Virus genome (UHGV): UHGV-0262101
Reading direction: 5' to 3' (one strand)
DNA length: 23,530 nt
DNA from: a virus
The notes under the pieces were generated by a model. That model did no database searches, was not told where the DNA came from, and saw nothing but the letters and a program-made list of their open reading frames with translations. Positions 1-13,921 of this stretch are shown here, one piece after another. Every line of letters starts with the position of its first letter. Position 1 is the stretch's first letter. The position numbers and the translations under genes are program-made.

Positions 1-207
1 AAAGTAGTACTTGTCATTTTTAAGTGACGTATTCAGCAATTAAAATATATGCCTGTTGATCAAGATTCATGCACGCTGTAAAATAATCGTTTTGTTTGTG
101 TTGCATGATTTAAAATGAATAGAAGATTATTTTTCAAAACACTTGCATCTTTGTCTGCAGTCATTCCTTTTTATTCAATTTCTAAGTTTTCAAACAGGAT
201 GACTAAT

Positions 208-2586
208 ATGCCTAATATAACCACAAATGTTGTAATTGGGATGCCATCGCAACTCTTCACTATGGCTCGCTCTTTTAAAGCCGTAGCTAATGGCAAAATT
301 TATATCGGTAAAATTGACACTGACCCGGTAAATCCTGAAAACCAGATTCAGGTTTATGTAGAGAGTGAAGATGGTTCTCACATTCCTGTTTCACAACCAA
401 TCATCCTTAACGCTGCTGGTTACCCTGTATATAACGGACAGATTGCCAAGTTCGTAACTGTGCAAGGCCATTCTATGGCTGTATATGATGCTTACGGTGC
501 TCAGCAGTTCTATTTTCCTAATGTACTGAAGTATGATCCTGATCAGCTGCGGGACCAATTAGAAGACATTGATGGCGCTAAGAAGTATCCTGAGTTGCAA
601 ATTGCTCGATGGAGAGATAATGGTGATGTTCGTGGATTTGGTGCTGTTGAAGGTGGTGTTTTATTATGTGATGAATCGTTTAAAGACGCAGAAAGAACTG
701 GGATCGATGTATATGTTCCAGAGGGAAGGTGGCGATTATCGACTCCTATGATCTTGGGTCAGAAGGGAAAATATTATGGTCCAGGATTACTTATTTTTGA
801 TAATGCAGAGTGGTGGAGGAGAGGAGGCTCATCAGGTTCTGAATCTATAAATGAGCGTTATACATTGTTCTATAATTATAATGATAAAGGAGATGTGACA
901 TTAACTTATGACGGGGTACCACAGAGTTTTACTTGGGTTGATGACAGGACAATAGAAGCTCCTGGTAGCTCAGTTAATGTAAGTGTCAGAATTAATATTG
1001 CCAATGGTTATTTAAAACTTGGGCCAGTGGCTGAATTTATTCGATCTTACAATCTTTGTGCCAATGGTGGTGGTGGTGAAAAACTAACCCCGGAGTTACC
1101 AGATCCAACAACAGCGCCAAAGGGTTACGATAATACAGCATTTGGCCCGCGAGCGTTACAGGATCTGACCGATGGTGTTAACAATACTGCCATTGGGTCA
1201 AAATCATTGATGAGTAATATTTCAGGAAATAATAATACCGGAGTTGGCTTCCTGACTTTGTATCGATGTACTGGAACAGGAAACACTGCTGTAGGTTCTG
1301 TTGCTGGCGAGTGGCTAACAACCGGGAGCTATAACTCATTCTTCGGACTTGGTGCAGGAGAAAAAGTTAAGGGCGGTAGATATAACGTTGGAGTTGGCTT
1401 TGAGGCCATGGCTGAGGCTCCAGATACTATTTATACAGTTGCAGTAGGATATCGGGCGAATGGAAATCCTGGAGATTACTCTCAGTCTAATAGTGTATAC
1501 GTAGGCTCTTTTGCCGGAGACTTCTCTATTGGTTCAAATAACACCATGGTTGGCTACAGAGCGGGAAACTGTCTTGGTGCTGCGGAGGCAGCAGGTACAG
1601 GGACTGGGCATGATAATGTTGGCATTGGAATGTTCGCAATGCGCAAGAATCTTGCCGGGAATGAAAGCGTTGTTATTGGTGCTGGAGCGGCAACCGAGTC
1701 AACAATTACAGATAATGTTGTTGTAATTGGTTATGGTGCATGCGGTGAAACTCAAACGCTAGGTTCATTTACCGTTTCTATTGGTCACATGGCACTTATA
1801 GCAGCAACGGGTGATAATAATGTTGCGGTTGGACAGCAGGCATTAAAAGGAACAACATCGGGAAGCAGTAACGTTGCAATTGGGTCTGGCTCTCTTGTCA
1901 CAAATACAACCGGCGCATTAAACACGGCTATTGGACATAATTCAGGTAGATTAACTCAATCAGGGGAAAGCACATCATCACTTACCAACACAACAACTGT
2001 TGGCAATGATGCAAGGGTGTCAGGAAGTAATCAGGTGCAGCTTGGCAATTCTTCCACAACGACATATGTATATGGAACTGTGCAAAACAGATCTGATGCG
2101 CGTGATAAAACAGATATCCGAGATACTTTGCTGGGGATTGAATTTATCCTTGGGCTTCGTCCTGTCGATGGTCGCTGGGATATGCGTGATGATTATATTG
2201 ATGTTATTGAAAAGACAAGAATTGTACCAAAAAAAGTAGAACGAGATGTTGATGGAATTACTATATCAGCTATTGAGAATGTCGAAGAAAAATATCTTGA
2301 AGTAGTGCAGAAAACTCCTGACGGCAGTAAAAAACGTCAACGATACCATCACTGGTTTATTGCACAGGACGTATTGAAACTGTGTGAAAAATTAGGTGTT
2401 GAGTTCGGTGGGCTACAGCATCACTTGAAAAATGGTGGGGATGATGTTTACTCACTCGGTTACGATGAGTTTATCCCACCTATTGTTAAATCAATTCAGC
2501 AATGCTGGGAGAGAATTGATAATATAGAAAGACGTATCGAAGAACTAGAGATGACATTAAAAAAGAATAACTTAAATAAAATATGA
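208..2586 (+). CDS. Tailspike / tail fibre protein: P22-type N-terminal head-binding domain, Gly/Asn-rich repeat central domain, C-terminal S74-type intramolecular chaperone domain
   Basis: Track ORF 115..2586. The N-terminus ([43 protein letters not shown]...YDPDQ) matches the conserved head-binding domain of P22/Sf6/HK620-family tailspikes, which begin M-x-x-I-T-x-N-V-V, so the start is placed at ATG 208 (AGGA about 9 nt upstream) rather than 115 or 199. The middle is rich in N-x-A-[IV]-G repeats. The C-terminus carries SDARDK (Ser-x4-Lys), typical of autoproteolytic S74 chaperone domains. Confidence 0.85.
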
Positions 2587-3395: not shown

Positions 3396-4574
3396 ATGGC
3401 TATAAGCGACACAAAACTGCGTACTATTTATGGTAAACCATATTCGGGCCCACAAGAAGTGGCTGATGCCGATGGCCTCAGCGTACGAATTTCACCGAAG
3501 GGGGTCATCCAGTTCCAGTACCGCTATCGCTGGCATGGCAAGCCTAATCGACTTGGGCTTGGTCGATACCCATCCCTGTCTTTGAAGGATGCCAGACAGA
3601 TCACTGCTGACTTGCGAAAGCTCTATTTCTCAGGAACGGATCCACGCACCTATTTTGAAGAGAAGGTGGAGAACTCCATGACGGTCGCCCAGTGTCTCGA
3701 CTACTGGTTCGACAACTACGTCTCTACAACTCTCAGAGAAAAGACCCAGGCACTTTACCGATCAACGGTTATGAAGCGCATGCATGACGCCTTTCCTAAT
3801 CGTCCGGCATCTTCTATCACGGTTAAGCAATGGGTTGACCTGCTTACCGAAGAAGAAAGAGATAATCCACGCCGAGCAAGGCAGGTGCTAAGTCAACTAA
3901 GATCAGCAATAAGTTGGTGCATGCGGCGTCAGTTGATAGATAGTTGCGCAATTATGAGCATCCAACCAAGGGACTTCGGCTCCCGCGCTGAGGTAGGGGA
4001 TCGGGTACTGTCGTATCACGAACTGGCTAAGATTTGGCTTGCTATTGAAAGAAGCCGTGCGTCTACGTCAAATAAGCTACTTCATCAGATGCTTATGCTG
4101 TGGGGGGCGAGGCTCTCAGAGCTTAGGCTGGCAACAAAGACAGAATTTGACCTGCTGGACAACGTATGGACCGTACCGAAAGAGCATAGCAAGATGGGTA
4201 ATGTTATCCGTCGTCCAATCTTCGAACAAATTAAGCCTTTTCTCGAAAAGGCCATGACAACGTACAATGATGTTCTTTTCCCTGGAGAAGACATAAACAA
4301 ACCGATCAGCATCGCTGCAGCCAACCGATTCGTAAATAGAATAAGGGGAGGGATGGATCTAGGTTACTGGCGAACACATGATTTCAGAAGAACGCTTGTT
4401 ACACGTCTGTCCGAGATGAATGTCGAGCCTCATGTTACTGAGCGAATGCTCGGTCATGAACTTGGCGGGATAATGTCCGTGTACAATAAACACGACTGGA
4501 TAGAGGCTCAGCGCAAAGCTTATGAGCTTCACGCTGATAAATTGTTCTGGCACATCAGGAGCATTTCTGGTTAA
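3396..4574 (+). CDS. int: Tyrosine site-specific integrase, P4 / CP4-57 type
   Basis: 392-aa ORF. N-terminal arm-binding-like region (GLSVRISPKGVIQFQYRYRWHGKPNRLGLGRYPSLSLKDAR) and C-terminal catalytic region with HDFRRT, LGH and the SVYNKHDW tyrosine region. Confidence 0.9.
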   Translation: MAISDTKLRTIYGKPYSGPQEVADADGLSVRISPKGVIQFQYRYRWHGKPNRLGLGRYPSLSLKDARQITADLRKLYFSGTDPRTYFEEKVENSMTVAQCLDYWFDNYVSTTLREKTQALYRSTVMKRMHDAFPNRPASSITVKQWVDLLTEEERDNPRRARQVLSQLRSAISWCMRRQLIDSCAIMSIQPRDFGSRAEVGDRVLSYHELAKIWLAIERSRASTSNKLLHQMLMLWGARLSELRLATKTEFDLLDNVWTVPKEHSKMGNVIRRPIFEQIKPFLEKAMTTYNDVLFPGEDINKPISIAAANRFVNRIRGGMDLGYWRTHDFRRTLVTRLSEMNVEPHVTERMLGHELGGIMSVYNKHDWIEAQRKAYELHADKLFWHIRSISG

Positions 4575-5253: not shown

Positions 5254-5325
5254 TTATCATCTCCATAAAACAAAACTCGCCGTAGCGAGTTCAGATAAAA
5301 GAAATCCCCGCGAGTGCGAGGATTG

Positions 5326-5610
5326 TTATTCATTGCCGATATTCACCTTTATCGCGTACACCTTTACCGGTTTATCGCCGAAGTGAGGATGTGTGATTGT
5401 CTTGATTTCATATCCGTCATACGGGACGTCAATTCTGCGGCTGGAATCGTCGCGCTTCGGATATCCCTTTGTGATAATCAGGCGGTCATACTCCCGGAAC
5501 ATAATTCGCTTATTCCAGTAGTCATTACACAGGCGATACTCTTCCGTTTTCTCTCCGCGAATCATGGCATCGAAGTATTCACCTTTGACGGCAAGTTGCA
5601 GGTTAGCCAC
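5326..5610 (-). CDS. Hypothetical protein (94 aa)
   Basis: Track ORF. GTG start preceded by AGGAGG at 6-nt spacing. Overlaps the stop of the upstream gene by 8 nt. Confidence 0.6.
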   Translation of the reverse strand: MANLQLAVKGEYFDAMIRGEKTEEYRLCNDYWNKRIMFREYDRLIITKGYPKRDDSSRRIDVPYDGYEIKTITHPHFGDKPVKVYAIKVNIGNE

Positions 5611-10828: not shown

Positions 10829-10853
10829 AAAAATAAAGGCCGACTATGCGGCC
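10829..10853 (-). terminator. Intrinsic terminator between the two moron genes (minus-strand sense)
   Basis: Minus-strand ggccgcatagtcggcc (5-bp GC stem) followed by tttattttt. The hairpin overlaps the stop codon of the 207-aa gene. Confidence 0.5.
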
Positions 10854-11467
10854 TCGGAAGGAAGTCCAATCATCTTATTCAAATCTTCTACCCGTAAAGC
10901 AGGAAGTGCTGTACTTGCTTTATCTGCTTCTTTTGGTAGCAATTCTTTGCTTTCAGGCCAAACTTCAATAAGTCGCTTAACTGTTGTGACTGAGTTCAAA
11001 GCACCCCATACATTTGATTCGATATCCTTTTTCAAGGCTTCAAGGTTTTGTTGCAATGCGCAGATTTCATCAAACCTTTTTGTTATTTCGTGTTCTGCGT
11101 CAAACATGCACTTATCTTTGGTTGGAGTAGGGAGAAATATATCTTCGCCATTGCCGTCTTTCCCATATGAATGCCATCCAACCCTTCTGCCAGATACAGT
11201 CAGATAAATTGAAGTAGAACGAAAATCGTATGAGTAAAATGAACATCCCATCTTTTCAAGTTCTTCACTTATAGCTACCAACTTGGATGATAACTGATCC
11301 ACTTCCTCAGTTTTCTTTTTACCGCCAAACGCAATAACTCTGGCGTCAAGTGCAAGCTGGTTCTTTAACTTTGTTACTTCTTCAAGTTCAGTGAAAACCC
11401 CAGACTTAATTAAAGCGTTACGAGCGATTTCCTCTTTCATTCTCGTAGTTAAGCGGATTGATGACAT
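10844..11467 (-). CDS. Hypothetical protein (207 aa), first gene of the N-proximal moron, translationally coupled to N
   Basis: Track ORF 10844..11527 trimmed to ATG 11465-11467 (MSSIRLTTRMKEE...). Its RBS GAGAGGA overlaps the N stop codon. AT-rich, no recognisable domain. Confidence 0.7.
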   Translation of the reverse strand: MSSIRLTTRMKEEIARNALIKSGVFTELEEVTKLKNQLALDARVIAFGGKKKTEEVDQLSSKLVAISEELEKMGCSFYSYDFRSTSIYLTVSGRRVGWHSYGKDGNGEDIFLPTPTKDKCMFDAEHEITKRFDEICALQQNLEALKKDIESNVWGALNSVTTVKRLIEVWPESKELLPKEADKASTALPALRVEDLNKMIGLPSEAA

Positions 11468-11478
11468 ATTAATTCCTC

Positions 11479-11805
11479 TCAAATAAGTGGTTTGCTGCCT
11501 AATTTCATTTTCTGGCGACCAACACAAGTCACACCCATTTCACTGCGTGGCTTGCTGTACCATGTGCGCTGATTCTTGCGCTCAATACGTTGCAGGTTGC
11601 TTTCAATCTGTTCGTGGTATTCAGCCAGCACCGTAAGGTCTATCGGATTCAGTGCGCTTTCTACTCGTGATTTCGGTTTGCGATTCAGCGAGAGAATAGG
11701 GCGGTTAACTGGTTTTGCGCTTACCCCAACCAACAGGGGATTTGCTGCTTTCCATTGAGCCTGTTTCTCTGCGCGACGTTCGCGGCGGCGTGTTTGTGCA
11801 TCCAT
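11479..11805 (-). CDS. N: Antitermination protein N (lambda type)
   Basis: Internal ATG of track ORF (AGGAGA upstream). MDAQTRRRERRAEKQAQWKAANPLLVGVSAKPVNRPILSLNRKPKSRVESALNPIDLTVLAEYH... is near-identical to lambda N as recalled, including the arginine-rich boxB-binding motif. Confidence 0.9.
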   Translation of the reverse strand: MDAQTRRRERRAEKQAQWKAANPLLVGVSAKPVNRPILSLNRKPKSRVESALNPIDLTVLAEYHEQIESNLQRIERKNQRTWYSKPRSEMGVTCVGRQKMKLGSKPLI

Positions 11806-11977
11806 CTGGATTCTCCTGTCAGTTAGCTTTGGTGGTGTGGTAGGTGGGAGACCCATTTCGACCTGCTTCGGCCGACTTCAATTCGGCAATAGTTCCGCAG
11901 GCCTCGCCGCTTTACGTGCGACATATTCCCATCCATGAACCCTTCACCACACCCCAAAGCCTTCTGCTTTGAATGCT

Positions 11978-12008
11978 GCCCTTCTTCAGGGCTTAATTTT
12001 TAAGAGCG
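11978..12008 (-). promoter_or_regulatory. nutL (boxA CGCTCTTA plus boxB hairpin GCCCTGAAGAAGGGC)
   Basis: Reverse complement of 11978-12008 reads cgctcttaaaaattaagccctgaagaagggc, matching lambda nutL as recalled. Confidence 0.85.
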
Positions 12009-12052
12009 TCACCTTCATGGTGGTCAGTGCGTCCTGCTGATGGCTTAAAATA

Positions 12053-12132
12053 TACCTACAGGTAAAACCCATGTCTATACCTGTAGGTAAATAAAATTGA
12101 TGTGAGAGTTTACCTGCTTGAATTTTCAGGTA
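12053..12132. promoter_or_regulatory. oL operator cluster with the pL promoter region
   Basis: Palindromic 12-mers tacctacaggta (12053-12064) and tacctgtaggta (12078-12089), plus split half-sites tacct (12111-12115) and aggta (12128-12132). Same motif as at oR. Confidence 0.6.
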
Positions 12133-12150
12133 ATTAATTTTTTGGATTGA

Positions 12151-12174
12151 TATAAAAAAGCCCGCTTTGCGGGC
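12151..12174 (-). terminator. Intrinsic terminator ending the cI-distal transcript
   Basis: Perfect hairpin gcccgc-ttt-gcgggc (12160-12174). The minus-strand reading is followed by ttttttata. Confidence 0.65.
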
Positions 12175-12186
12175 TGAAAGGAGATG

Positions 12187-12483
12187 TCAGAAGCTATTTG
12201 GATTGCTTGGCCATTGCGGCAATTTTGATTCTACTGGGGTGTGTTTGGGTTTGAGTCCGTTTAAGTAGTCAAGGCGCTCAATGGCGCATTTATACATAGC
12301 AATCTGCTCTGATGACATGTCGTCGTATGACATGCCTTTGAACTTTTTAATTATCGATTCTGCCTCATGTATAAGATTCTTCTTCCTCATGAGTTCAGCT
12401 GTATGCTTAGAGCTTACAGGAGATAACTTTGCCCATATGAAGCAGATGATTACAACAGCGACTACTATGCCGGGTATAAACAT
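12187..12483 (-). CDS. Small single-pass membrane protein co-transcribed with cI (rexAB position)
   Basis: Track ORF 12187..12501 starts with TTG overlapping the cI stop (TTGA); the first ATG is at 12481-12483. MFIPGIVVAVVIICFIWAKL is a predicted TM helix followed by a charged soluble tail. No homology recognised. Confidence 0.6.
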   Translation of the reverse strand: MFIPGIVVAVVIICFIWAKLSPVSSKHTAELMRKKNLIHEAESIIKKFKGMSYDDMSSEQIAMYKCAIERLDYLNGLKPKHTPVESKLPQWPSNPNSF

Positions 12484-12497
12484 TTGCTGCTTTATCC

Positions 12498-13184
12498 TCA
12501 AACTTTTGGCAGATCGTCCTGGTCTACGTACCTGGTGTGTTTCACAATAGCTGAAACAAAATGCATTTTATCAACTTCTTCAACAGGAAGAGTGATTGGG
12601 CGGTGATCACTGTTTATGCTACTAAACTGATAATCACCGTCTCTTGTTTTGTTCATGATCTTTATCATGTTGTGACCGTCTTTGGTCCTTACAAAGACTT
12701 CATCACCTGGATGTACTGGCGTATTTGGTTCAATAACAACATATTCTCCTGACTGAATCCTTGGCCACATGCTGTCACCCTTAACCTTCAGACCGTAAGC
12801 ATCTTTATCGCCGCTGTAGATGCTTAACCAACCGGATCTGAATTCAATCATATCCACTGAGCCATCAACTCCCAAAACGGCTTCACCAATTACCGGAACA
12901 AAACCCGCACGAACGTTACCCGCAAACTCAAGATGGTCCGTAGCTCCAGCTTTACCATCTGCAAGCATGTCCATCCATCCGCGTGGGAGATTAAAAGATT
13001 TTTCAATTAGTTCCATCATATCGTCAGCAATGCGTTTTTTTCCGCTTTTTCCTTCCGGATACAGCATTCTGGAAACGTATGATGGTTCCCTTTCTATTCG
13101 ACGAGCCAACTCTGAGGCCTTTCCATTACAGAATCGGTCTCTTATCTCTATCAGCCTTAGTCGTCTTTGTTCGTATTTATCCAT
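12498..13184 (-). CDS. cI: CI-type prophage repressor (HTH N-domain plus LexA-like S24 autopeptidase C-domain)
   Basis: 228 aa. C-terminal GDSMWPRIQSGEYVVIE...MIKIMNK carries the Ser/Lys autocleavage motifs. Divergent from cro across the operator region. Not lambda cI. Confidence 0.85.
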   Translation of the reverse strand: MDKYEQRRLRLIEIRDRFCNGKASELARRIEREPSYVSRMLYPEGKSGKKRIADDMMELIEKSFNLPRGWMDMLADGKAGATDHLEFAGNVRAGFVPVIGEAVLGVDGSVDMIEFRSGWLSIYSGDKDAYGLKVKGDSMWPRIQSGEYVVIEPNTPVHPGDEVFVRTKDGHNMIKIMNKTRDGDYQFSSINSDHRPITLPVEEVDKMHFVSAIVKHTRYVDQDDLPKV

Positions 13185-13204
13185 GATTTAATTCTATCTT
13201 TGAT

Positions 13205-13260
13205 TACCTGCCGGTAAATAACCTATGGGTATTGATTTGCTTTTTACCTACAGGTAAACT
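13205..13260. promoter_or_regulatory. oR operator cluster with pR/pRM region
   Basis: tacctgccggta (13205-13216), degenerate aacctatgggta (13221-13232) and tacctacaggta (13245-13256). Candidate pR is -35 TTGATT (13232-13237), 17-nt spacer, -10 TAAACT (13255-13260), overlapped by the third site. Confidence 0.6.
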
Positions 13261-13292
13261 CATCTTATTCAACAACGGGAAGGAGATAGCAA

Positions 13293-13523
13293 ATGGAAGA
13301 ACTCCGCTTGTATCTGAACTCCCTTTCACTGGAAGAGCAGAGAGAATTTGCCACCAAGTGCGGAACTTCTATCGGCTATTTGAGGAAAGCACTTAGCCGT
13401 AATCATGAATTGGGCGCAGCACTTTGTGTTCTGATTGAGAAGTTCAGCAATGGTGAAGTGACTCGCAAAGACCTTCATCCGGTTGATTGGGAAAGCATCT
13501 GGCCTGAATTAATGGCCGCTTAA
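13293..13523 (+). CDS. cro: Cro-like HTH regulator
   Basis: 76 aa, first gene rightward of oR, GGGAAGGAG RBS. Assigned by position and size. Not lambda Cro. Confidence 0.65.
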   Translation: MEELRLYLNSLSLEEQREFATKCGTSIGYLRKALSRNHELGAALCVLIEKFSNGEVTRKDLHPVDWESIWPELMAA

Positions 13524-13531
13524 GTTATTAA

Positions 13532-13563
13532 CGCTCTTACACATCCCCGCCCTGAAAAAGGGC
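13532..13563 (+). promoter_or_regulatory. nutR (boxA CGCTCTTA plus boxB GCCCTGAAAAAGGGC)
   Basis: cgctctta at 13532-13539 and gccctgaaaaagggc at 13549-13563, matching lambda nutR as recalled. Confidence 0.85.
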
Positions 13564-13639
13564 ATTACCAGAAACAAATCTCTATGGTTTTGCGTTTCTT
13601 TGCGAAGCCAACTCTATCTAATCATTAAGGAAATTATCT

Positions 13640-13921
13640 ATGGGTACTATTGCAACTAAAAGCAAGAAAGCGGCTCGCATCGAGTCAGCCTTGCTGAACA
13701 AACTGGCACTGATGGGGCAGAAGACATTCGCTCGAGCAATGGGGGTTCCTGAATATCAGGTAAGCCGATGGAAGAATGGTTTCTTCTCGCAGGTAAGCAT
13801 GATGCTGGCTGTTCTGGAATACGGAATCGAAGACGATGAAATGGCTGAGCTGACTAAGCGGCTTGCCAATTACCTGACAAAAGAAAAAGCCCCGAAGAAC
13901 GGCGAATTCTTCGAGGCCTGA
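13640..13921 (+). CDS. cII: CII-like transcriptional activator
   Basis: 93 aa. ARIESALLNKLALMGQKTFARAMGV...SRWKNG...SMMLAVLEYGIEDDEMAEL aligns by eye with lambda CII (LRIESALLNKIAMLGTEKTAEAVGVDKSQISRWK...). Confidence 0.75.
   Translation: MGTIATKSKKAARIESALLNKLALMGQKTFARAMGVPEYQVSRWKNGFFSQVSMMLAVLEYGIEDDEMAELTKRLANYLTKEKAPKNGEFFEA

Follow-up and report, generated by a model that had tools for sequence, protein, structure and literature searches.

The virus genome UHGV-0262101, analysed as a stretch of 23,530 nucleotides (hereafter the window, whose numbering is used for all coordinates), carries directly behind its cI repressor gene a 98-codon open reading frame (ORF) on the minus strand, 12187..12483, with start codon ATG at 12483..12481 and stop codon TGA at 12189..12187. 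Comparative data indicate that this ORF, which we call gene X, is a genuine coding gene, and the anatomy of the region suggests that it is the second and last gene of an mEp043-type repressor operon, co-transcribed with cI. Its product, predicted to have an N-terminal transmembrane (TM) helix and a helical-hairpin tail, belongs to the protein family PHROG 10450. What would such a protein do in a lysogen? Our tentative answer, given with a little less than even confidence and drawn from position and architecture, is that X serves superinfection exclusion at the inner membrane of the lysogen in which it is expressed, and so would represent a new family of a known kind.

Coding status and start codon of gene X

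A preliminary description of this DNA had placed an ORF of about 98 to 104 residues on or just after the cI stop codon, and a direct reading of the cI/X junction (12495..12501, minus strand) bears this out. The longest form of the frame, 12501..12187 (minus strand), begins at an alternative TTG (12501..12499) that overlaps the cI TGA (12500..12498) as TTGA and would give a protein of 104 residues. The ATG lies 18 nt beyond the TTG and 14 nt after the cI stop, giving a product of 98 residues, and has a Shine-Dalgarno-like GAGGA motif (12499..12495) 11 nt upstream. The start codon is ATG or GTG at one and the same position in all copies, and the distant homologues all begin M/V-[YFW]-I-[PS]. Because in-frame stops lie just upstream of the X start in two of the cI-linked loci described below (L015 and L052), the six-residue TTG extension is not conserved; by this comparison the true start is that of the 98-residue form, and the extension is incidental.

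Copies of the gene were gathered by surveying 5,426 complete E. coli genomes in RefSeq, of which 52 carry the module, and from a further 32 cI-linked loci taken from IMG/VR and one Escherichia species genome; 46 distinct loci were inspected. The frame is intact, at 97-98 codons, in all 31 complete copies among the 32 IMG/VR and species-genome loci (in the 32nd, L054, it leaves the contig end after 77 codons), and also in six RefSeq or phage copies that were read. The distance from cI stop to X start is 14 nt in 32 of these 32 loci. Between the most divergent E. coli pair of X genes 11-12 codons differ, seven of the changes being synonymous; third codon positions hold 8 of 11 substitutions, and the amino-acid changes are conservative. 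The ratio of nonsynonymous to synonymous substitution rates (dN/dS, or omega), calculated by the Nei-Gojobori method, is 0.13-0.20 for closely related copies and rises to 0.28-0.35 for pairs of intermediate divergence. Since the frame is intact in every complete copy, dN/dS lies between 0.13 and 0.35, and ATG and GTG alternate at a single position, we conclude from the sequence comparisons that X is a genuine gene. NCBI's pipeline annotates it in only two of the 52 carrier E. coli genomes, and in the others the roughly 700 bp between N and cI are left empty.

Position in the presumed repressor operon

The gene in front of X, cI (12498..13184, minus strand), encodes a 228-residue repressor with an S24 peptidase C-terminal domain (PF00717, Peptidase_S24, E 1.4e-17) that is 99% identical to mEp043 cI; it is the first gene of the presumed pRM/pRE operon. 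Its GC content (43.2%) is near that of X (41.4%). Behind X lies an intrinsic terminator (12149..12175, minus strand; hairpin 12175..12159), the equivalent of lambda t-imm, with a 7-bp GC-rich stem, a 3-nt loop and a U-run: AGCCCGC-AAA-GCGGGCT followed by UUUUUUAUAU. The stem begins 11 nt after the X stop, and the predicted free energy is -12.6 kcal/mol (z -3.3 against shuffled sequences). It is the sole terminator between cI and oL/pL. The preliminary description had likened the location to that of lambda rexAB, with a perfect terminator before oL/pL, and on both counts it agrees with what is seen: X lies between cI and that single terminator, and the oL palindromes lie beyond.

A separate X promoter inside cI was considered and rejected, as the only site in a consensus scan (TTGGGA-17-TATGAT, 9/12) is at chance level and the 14-nt gap between cI and X is too short to hold one; promoter scans of the P22-like loci described below were equally uninformative.

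From nutL to cII the sequence shares 98.8% identity with that of coliphage mEp043, in which X is gp49, a 'hypothetical protein'. In all 52 E. coli genomes with the module X lies beside an S24 repressor gene. The flanking early genes differ between these genomes, and the module thus appears to travel as an immunity cassette.

Relatives in two genomic contexts

Over residues 7-104 of the long ORF, X matches positions 1-98 of the 98-position profile PHROG 10450 (function unknown) with an E value of 4.6e-54, and the same profile is the sole match of all 19 relatives in the family alignment; Pfam scans of these 19 gave scattered sub-threshold matches only. A HMMER search of 1.84 billion representative proteins returned 11 matches, about eight of them genuine and the rest long repetitive proteins. 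A profile search of 5.8 billion sequences yielded 26 proteins, the few with named sources coming from E. coli, E. fergusonii or Salmonella.

The relatives that could be located fall into two contexts. In the first, X again follows cI: four further loci represent two additional lineages (L015 is one; L016, L052 and L054 are the other), with X proteins 34-43% identical to that of the window and cI genes 84-85% identical to the window cI. Here X starts 3-5 nt after the cI stop and is followed by similar operators and then, where the contig reaches, by N. All other located relatives make up the second context and lie in P22-like prophages, convergent with the ejection-protein gene 16. These P22-like homologues (10 loci) are always oriented against the late genes and stand at P22's sieA position. 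The homologue comes last among the genes downstream of the mnt repressor gene in L003 (phage N7), L008, L009, L021 and L022, in L009 immediately behind mnt; those of L018-L020 are solitary genes beside gene 16. Neither a SieA homologue nor the SieA motif is present in 11 P22-like X loci, including the degenerate L007, and the P22 control was detected; sieA is carried by only 22 of 66 P22-like phages (Leavitt et al., PMC10883804). What the two contexts have in common is expression from a repressed prophage, not one particular repressor. No chromosomal homologue outside a prophage was found, all 46 inspected loci being phage or prophage.

Some of these loci hold other genes in the same interval. 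Two further ORFs with no assigned function lie between mnt and the X homologue in L003 (3008-3848; N7 ORF16 and ORF15), L008 (2196-2886) and L021 (1530-2367). In N7 they encode a 115-residue protein with paired CxxC motifs and a 169-residue protein with a central hydrophobic segment, and they may be additional prophage-expressed cargo. In L007 (5449-6747) the X homologue is part of a degraded P22-like remnant beside genes for a type VI secretion system Hcp and a Tlde1-domain protein, which points to a decaying prophage next to a type VI effector island.

Predicted membrane anchor, topology and structure

One N-terminal TM helix with a cytoplasmic tail had been proposed for the product in the preliminary description, and the family data support this, the topology being predicted. 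The segment FIPGIVVAVVIICFIWAKL (residues 2-18) has a mean Kyte-Doolittle hydropathy of 2.53 over 19 residues (KD19). An uncharged hydrophobic segment at the extreme N-terminus, preceded by no charged residue, is found in all 15 family members compared (KD19 1.65-2.64), and a second is absent, the maximum KD19 past residue 30 being at most 0.46 in every member. The 20 residues counted from the first charged residue have a net positive charge in 14 of the 15 and are balanced in one. Given this positive flank after the TM helix, the positive-inside rule predicts an N-out, C-in topology, with an N-terminus of one or two residues in the periplasm and the tail in the cytoplasm.

AlphaFold2, supplied with the 19-sequence alignment, gave a model with a predicted local distance difference test score (pLDDT) of 79.5, in which a long helix (residues 5-47) runs on out of the membrane, a loop leads from it to a second helix (58-76), and the tail is irregular. 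Invariant in the family are I38, E40, A41, Q60, C66, A67, L71, W91 and P92, and the TM-plus-hairpin architecture is kept in homologues down to about 30% identity. Among solved structures, a profile search of the PDB found designed helical filaments only, at an E value of 0.2. The combination of an N-terminal TM segment, helices and a conserved cysteine also recalls an i-spanin or holin-type protein; this reading was rejected in view of the position in a lysogenic operon and the strongly hydrophobic anchor.

Evolutionary rate of X and of its repressor

Comparison of the deep cI-linked lineages shows saturation at synonymous sites in all three genes, cI, cro and X, from which it follows that the cI-X unit is old. 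The nonsynonymous distance (dN) across these lineages is 0.51-0.61 for X, as against 0.10 for cI and 0.07-0.10 for cro. In pairs that are not saturated (synonymous distance, dS, 0.18-0.59) cI is 98-100% identical with an omega of 0.01-0.02, and X 68-86% identical with an omega of 0.28-0.35. X is some 15-30 times less constrained than cI. On these sequence data X is under selection but far less constrained than its neighbour, or is diversifying at some sites. Such fast turnover beside a frozen repressor resembles the pattern of proteins that face phage partners.

Comparison with known systems

The classical precedent is lambda RexAB. Like X, it lies directly downstream of cI on the presumed pRM/pRE transcript, in front of a terminator that precedes oL/pL, and it has one inner-membrane component. 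Unlike X, it comprises two genes: RexA is a cytoplasmic protein of 279 residues, and RexB has four TM segments. From cI to the terminator there is one ORF only, the 98 codons of X, whose product has a single hydrophobic segment. There is no sequence similarity between the two in the PADLOC (E <= 10), Pfam or NCBIfam searches, by which standard X is not a Rex homologue.

P22 SieA, which blocks the delivery of DNA by P22-like phages, resembles the distant homologues of X in its slot between gene 16 and the tailspike gene (gene 9), in the same orientation and downstream of mnt; X of the window itself lies outside this slot, in the immC region behind cI and not in immI/ant. SieA is also a prophage-expressed inner-membrane protein with a conserved part facing the cytoplasm, as is predicted for X; its conserved motif is predicted to be cytoplasmic (PMC10883804). 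It differs in having at least 164 residues, several TM segments and the motif FxRYPxEAxxFNK, whereas X has one TM segment and lacks the motif.

An architectural parallel exists with HK97 gp15, a 62-residue exclusion protein with an N-terminal TM segment and a charged helix, which is expressed from the prophage and acts alone (PMC3594210). This YebO-like moron product, which blocks genome entry of HK97 and HK75, shares with X a very short N-terminus, a single N-terminal TM helix, a positive flank and a charged helical tail. It is shorter, however, and belongs to a self-contained moron in the tail operon with chromosomal YebO relatives, whereas X has 98 residues, a second helix and a tail with the WP dipeptide, is operonic with cI and lacks relatives outside prophages.

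Hex of phage 434, too, is encoded downstream of the repressor gene; it partly overlaps that gene, is co-transcribed with cI as judged by reverse transcription PCR, and excludes P22 (PMC3564112). It differs from X in having 158 residues and in also inhibiting RecA-stimulated repressor cleavage (PMC3564112). An exhaustive protein search with X returned no Hex-like relative; the two sequences were not aligned directly. Finally, a classical moron has its own promoter and a distinct base composition, unlike X, which has a terminator only, no convincing promoter and a GC content near that of cI; the definition would fit the stand-alone homologues in L018-L020.

Possible functions of X

We favour inner-membrane superinfection exclusion because the family occupies the sieA slot where sieA is missing, has an architecture like that of gp15, evolves fast and is restricted to prophages. 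There is precedent behind a repressor gene: in lambda, 434 and 933W, genes that share the cI transcript confer heterologous exclusion (PMC3564112). In a lysogen X would be transcribed with cI from pRM, and during establishment of lysogeny from the cII-dependent pRE, in a message ending at the hairpin terminator before oL/pL. Translation would begin at the ATG/GTG start, probably by ribosomes just released from cI and so with translational coupling. The product would be a 98-residue single-pass inner-membrane protein that displays, on the cytoplasmic surface of the membrane, a helical hairpin of about 75 residues and an aromatic, WP-containing tail. As a lysogenic-conversion protein it would block superinfecting phages, most likely at genome delivery through the inner membrane as P22 SieA and HK97 gp15 do. 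Whether by itself or together with a membrane protein of the host, it would do so while leaving adsorption unaffected.

Several points weigh against this proposal. In the first place, a role for X in exclusion or abortive infection draws on its position and architecture and not on homology. Homology to the SieA family (types A-C) and to gp15/YebO was rejected (hhalign probabilities of 1.2% and 1.1%, respectively; neither the window nor any of 11 homologue loci contains the SieA motif). X has no meaningful match in Pfam or NCBIfam and none in PADLOC even at E <= 10, and its AlphaFold2 model found nothing below an E value of 0.8 in the BFVD and PDB fold libraries, a null result that is to be expected because the model is a helical hairpin. 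The earlier statement that the protein had no recognisable homology thus stands for these resources and for solved structures, and gives way only at the PHROG 10450 match, to a family itself of unknown function. The remote-homology search found no unrelated protein of known function, and no functional work turned up in the literature on mEp043, the X protein accessions or the PHROG number. Position, moreover, is suggestive only, since genes whose function is different or unknown are likewise found in the P22 'ant moron' and the rex slot (PMC2629481), and 434 Hex has a second role in repressor stability (PMC3564112). Transcription and translation of X in the lysogen are read from anatomy only. 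The predicted topology has charge bias as its one basis, and a TTG start would give the N-terminus two positive charges and make the call less clear. A cytoplasmic domain offers no obvious means of blocking entry, and weak constraint by itself could also produce an omega of 0.3.

A bolder proposal, to which we would give appreciably less than even odds, is that X founds an unrecognised stand-alone anti-phage family, exchangeable between the two classical slots for prophage-expressed genes in temperate phages of enterobacteria, the lambda rex slot (with cI) and the P22 sieA slot (with mnt). It would act through its cytoplasm-facing hairpin, either by jamming the exit of the channel formed by ejection or tape-measure proteins or as a one-protein sensor-effector in place of the two-protein Rex.

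BstA is said to be an example of an abortive-infection system linked to a prophage repressor. X might likewise be an abortive-infection effector in the manner of lambda Rex, sensing a phage and disturbing membrane integrity or energy, so that the infected lysogen stops growing and no phage is released. It is membrane-anchored and occupies the same operon position as rexAB, and abortive-infection systems occur among repressor-linked genes of prophages (PMC3564112). We nevertheless consider this unlikely: X is a single 98-residue protein with one TM segment, and where its surroundings are simplest (cI-X in the window, mnt-X in L009) it lacks a partner gene. Nothing like the RexA sensor or the four-TM RexB was found (the PADLOC search to E <= 10 included), and small single-pass prophage proteins of known role, as exemplified by HK97 gp15, block entry and do not kill.

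An improbable alternative of similar weight is that X is a lysogenic-conversion factor that acts on host physiology (envelope stress, transport or colonisation), like the small stress-responsive membrane proteins of E. coli. X is small, single-pass and prophage-encoded, no phage-related domain was detected in it, and many small membrane proteins act on host transporters or stress pathways (PMC3594210). Its distribution argues otherwise: the 46 inspected loci are all in phages or prophages, the 52 RefSeq E. coli copies all lie beside a prophage cI, and chromosomal homologues outside prophages, such as gp15 has in YebO, are lacking. The family, moreover, holds the sieA slot and excludes sieA from it, and its fast turnover is more readily explained by an arms race than by an interaction of the housekeeping kind.

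X could also regulate the switch of its own prophage, either by damping RecA-stimulated cleavage of cI as Hex does or by modulating a membrane protease such as FtsH/HflKC, and so tune the stability of the lysogen or the choice between lysis and lysogeny. The tight linkage of cI and X, kept while synonymous sites became saturated, speaks for such a role, as does the example of 434 Hex, whose gene likewise comes next after cI on the pRM transcript and which makes lysogens more stable (PMC3564112). A cI-specific role of the Hex kind is disfavoured, however, because the family also sits in P22-like loci away from cI, behind mnt or alone by gene 16 and far from the SOS-cleavable c2 repressor. A partner that binds cI would be expected to be as constrained as cI, whereas X is 68-86% identical where cI is 98-100% identical. 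X is also membrane-anchored, whereas a word search of the text of the Hex paper found no mention of a membrane or hydrophobic character (PMC3564112). We attach only a slight likelihood to this role.

Most automated annotation in effect treats X as a spurious ORF in the stretch from cI to the terminator (it is unannotated in 50 of the 52 carrier E. coli genomes), and the 11-nt Shine-Dalgarno spacing is long. That reading is very improbable and is already refuted by the comparative data: every complete copy is intact, third positions take most changes, dN/dS is 0.13-0.35, ATG or GTG is kept, homologues of about 30% identity share architecture and invariant residues, and the structure model is confident. 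Whatever probability these readings leave over belongs to something not yet imagined.

The immunity region and the rest of the window

The features around cI and X are those of a lambdoid immunity region. Palindrome and promoter scans place oL/pL at 12049..12137 (minus strand). The oL palindrome TATACCTACAGGTAAA, of 16 bp, is present in two copies downstream of the terminator (12051-12066 and 12076-12091), and two copies also occur between cI and cro (13204-13219 and 13243-13258), for which reason we take the two palindrome sites to be oL and oR; the operator consensus is T(A/T)TACCT(AC/GT)AGGTAAA. A promoter-like TAGACA-17-TATATT at 12077..12049 (-35 at 12077..12072, -10 at 12054..12049) overlaps the oL copies. 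The oR region (13191..13258), identified by the same scans, also includes a pRM-like TTTACC-16-TAGAAT (13218..13191, minus strand). A distance of 6 nt separates the end of its -10 hexamer from the cI ATG (13184), so that the joint message of cI and X may lack a leader, as happens with pRM transcription in lambda. Divergent from cI is a cro-like gene (13293..13523, plus strand), and at the start of the cII gene a cII box, TTGC-N6-TTGC (13652..13665, minus strand; the same box is annotated in mEp043), marks a candidate pRE that would also read leftward across cI and X while lysogeny is being established.

Between the terminator and both oL palindromes lies an inverted repeat, TTACCTG-N10-CAGGTAA (about 12106-12137), whose arms are operator half-sites with a spacer of 10 nt as against 2 nt in the palindromes. 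The same wide repeat occurs in L015 (about 2765-2790), L016 (about 5313-5338) and L052 (about 4310-4335); all four cI-linked lineages keep the arms and vary in the spacer. The repeat could be a third operator with a spacing of its own, or another protein could bind there.

On the left the immunity module is bordered by the start of the pL operon (11479..11992, minus strand), with a nutL boxB, GCCCTGAAGAAGGGC, at 11992..11978 and a lambda-type N gene at 11805..11479. The stretch from nutL to the start of N (11832-11954) is unrelated to the corresponding stretches of mEp043, PA45B and K56-43-un, with flanks that are 96-99% identical; judged from these alignments, a short piece of the pL leader has been replaced in mosaic fashion. 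Next after N, the pL operon has a gene (10844-11467, minus strand) for a protein with nucleotide modification associated domain 5 (Nmad5; E 2.4e-70). The same gene also follows N in strains JNE131328 and MSB1_9D, and does not in mEp043 or MB19.

A search of Rfam (E <= 1) over 11400-13700 gave sub-threshold matches only and no non-coding RNA. A link to the small RNA svsR, from the 3' end of cI in prophage NC-SV (PMC12803456), was also sought; none was found, and strain NC101 is not among the 52 carriers.

The window as a whole opens with a P22-type tailspike gene (115-2586, plus strand; Head_binding domain, E 3e-63) followed by an integrase gene (3396-4574, plus strand), for which reason we regard the prophage as P22-like; besides the tailspike with its head-binding domain and the integrase it encodes RecT, the lambda-like N, replication protein O and a DnaB-like helicase. 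The prophage is thus P22-like, yet its immunity region is of the lambdoid mEp043 type; its own gene-16/sieA slot lies outside the window.

Significance

That X exists was already on record, since it is deposited as a hypothetical protein, and exclusion by genes behind cI is a classical idea. What is new is a small, coherent, fast-evolving and largely unannotated family that is common to the rex and sieA slots and unrelated to Rex, SieA, Hex and gp15. Annotation omits X in about 96% of the carrier complete E. coli genomes, and because it is mostly unannotated, surveys of prophage cargo or defence that start from annotated proteins overlook it. The system is a tractable one: mEp043 is a cultured phage of K-12, and X has only 98 residues and needs no partner gene. 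Natural X variants differ strongly beside a nearly unchanged repressor, which would allow specificity determinants to be mapped. If X does exclude phages, it would add a new sequence family to the few inner-membrane exclusion proteins, such as SieA and gp15, whose mechanism is unclear.

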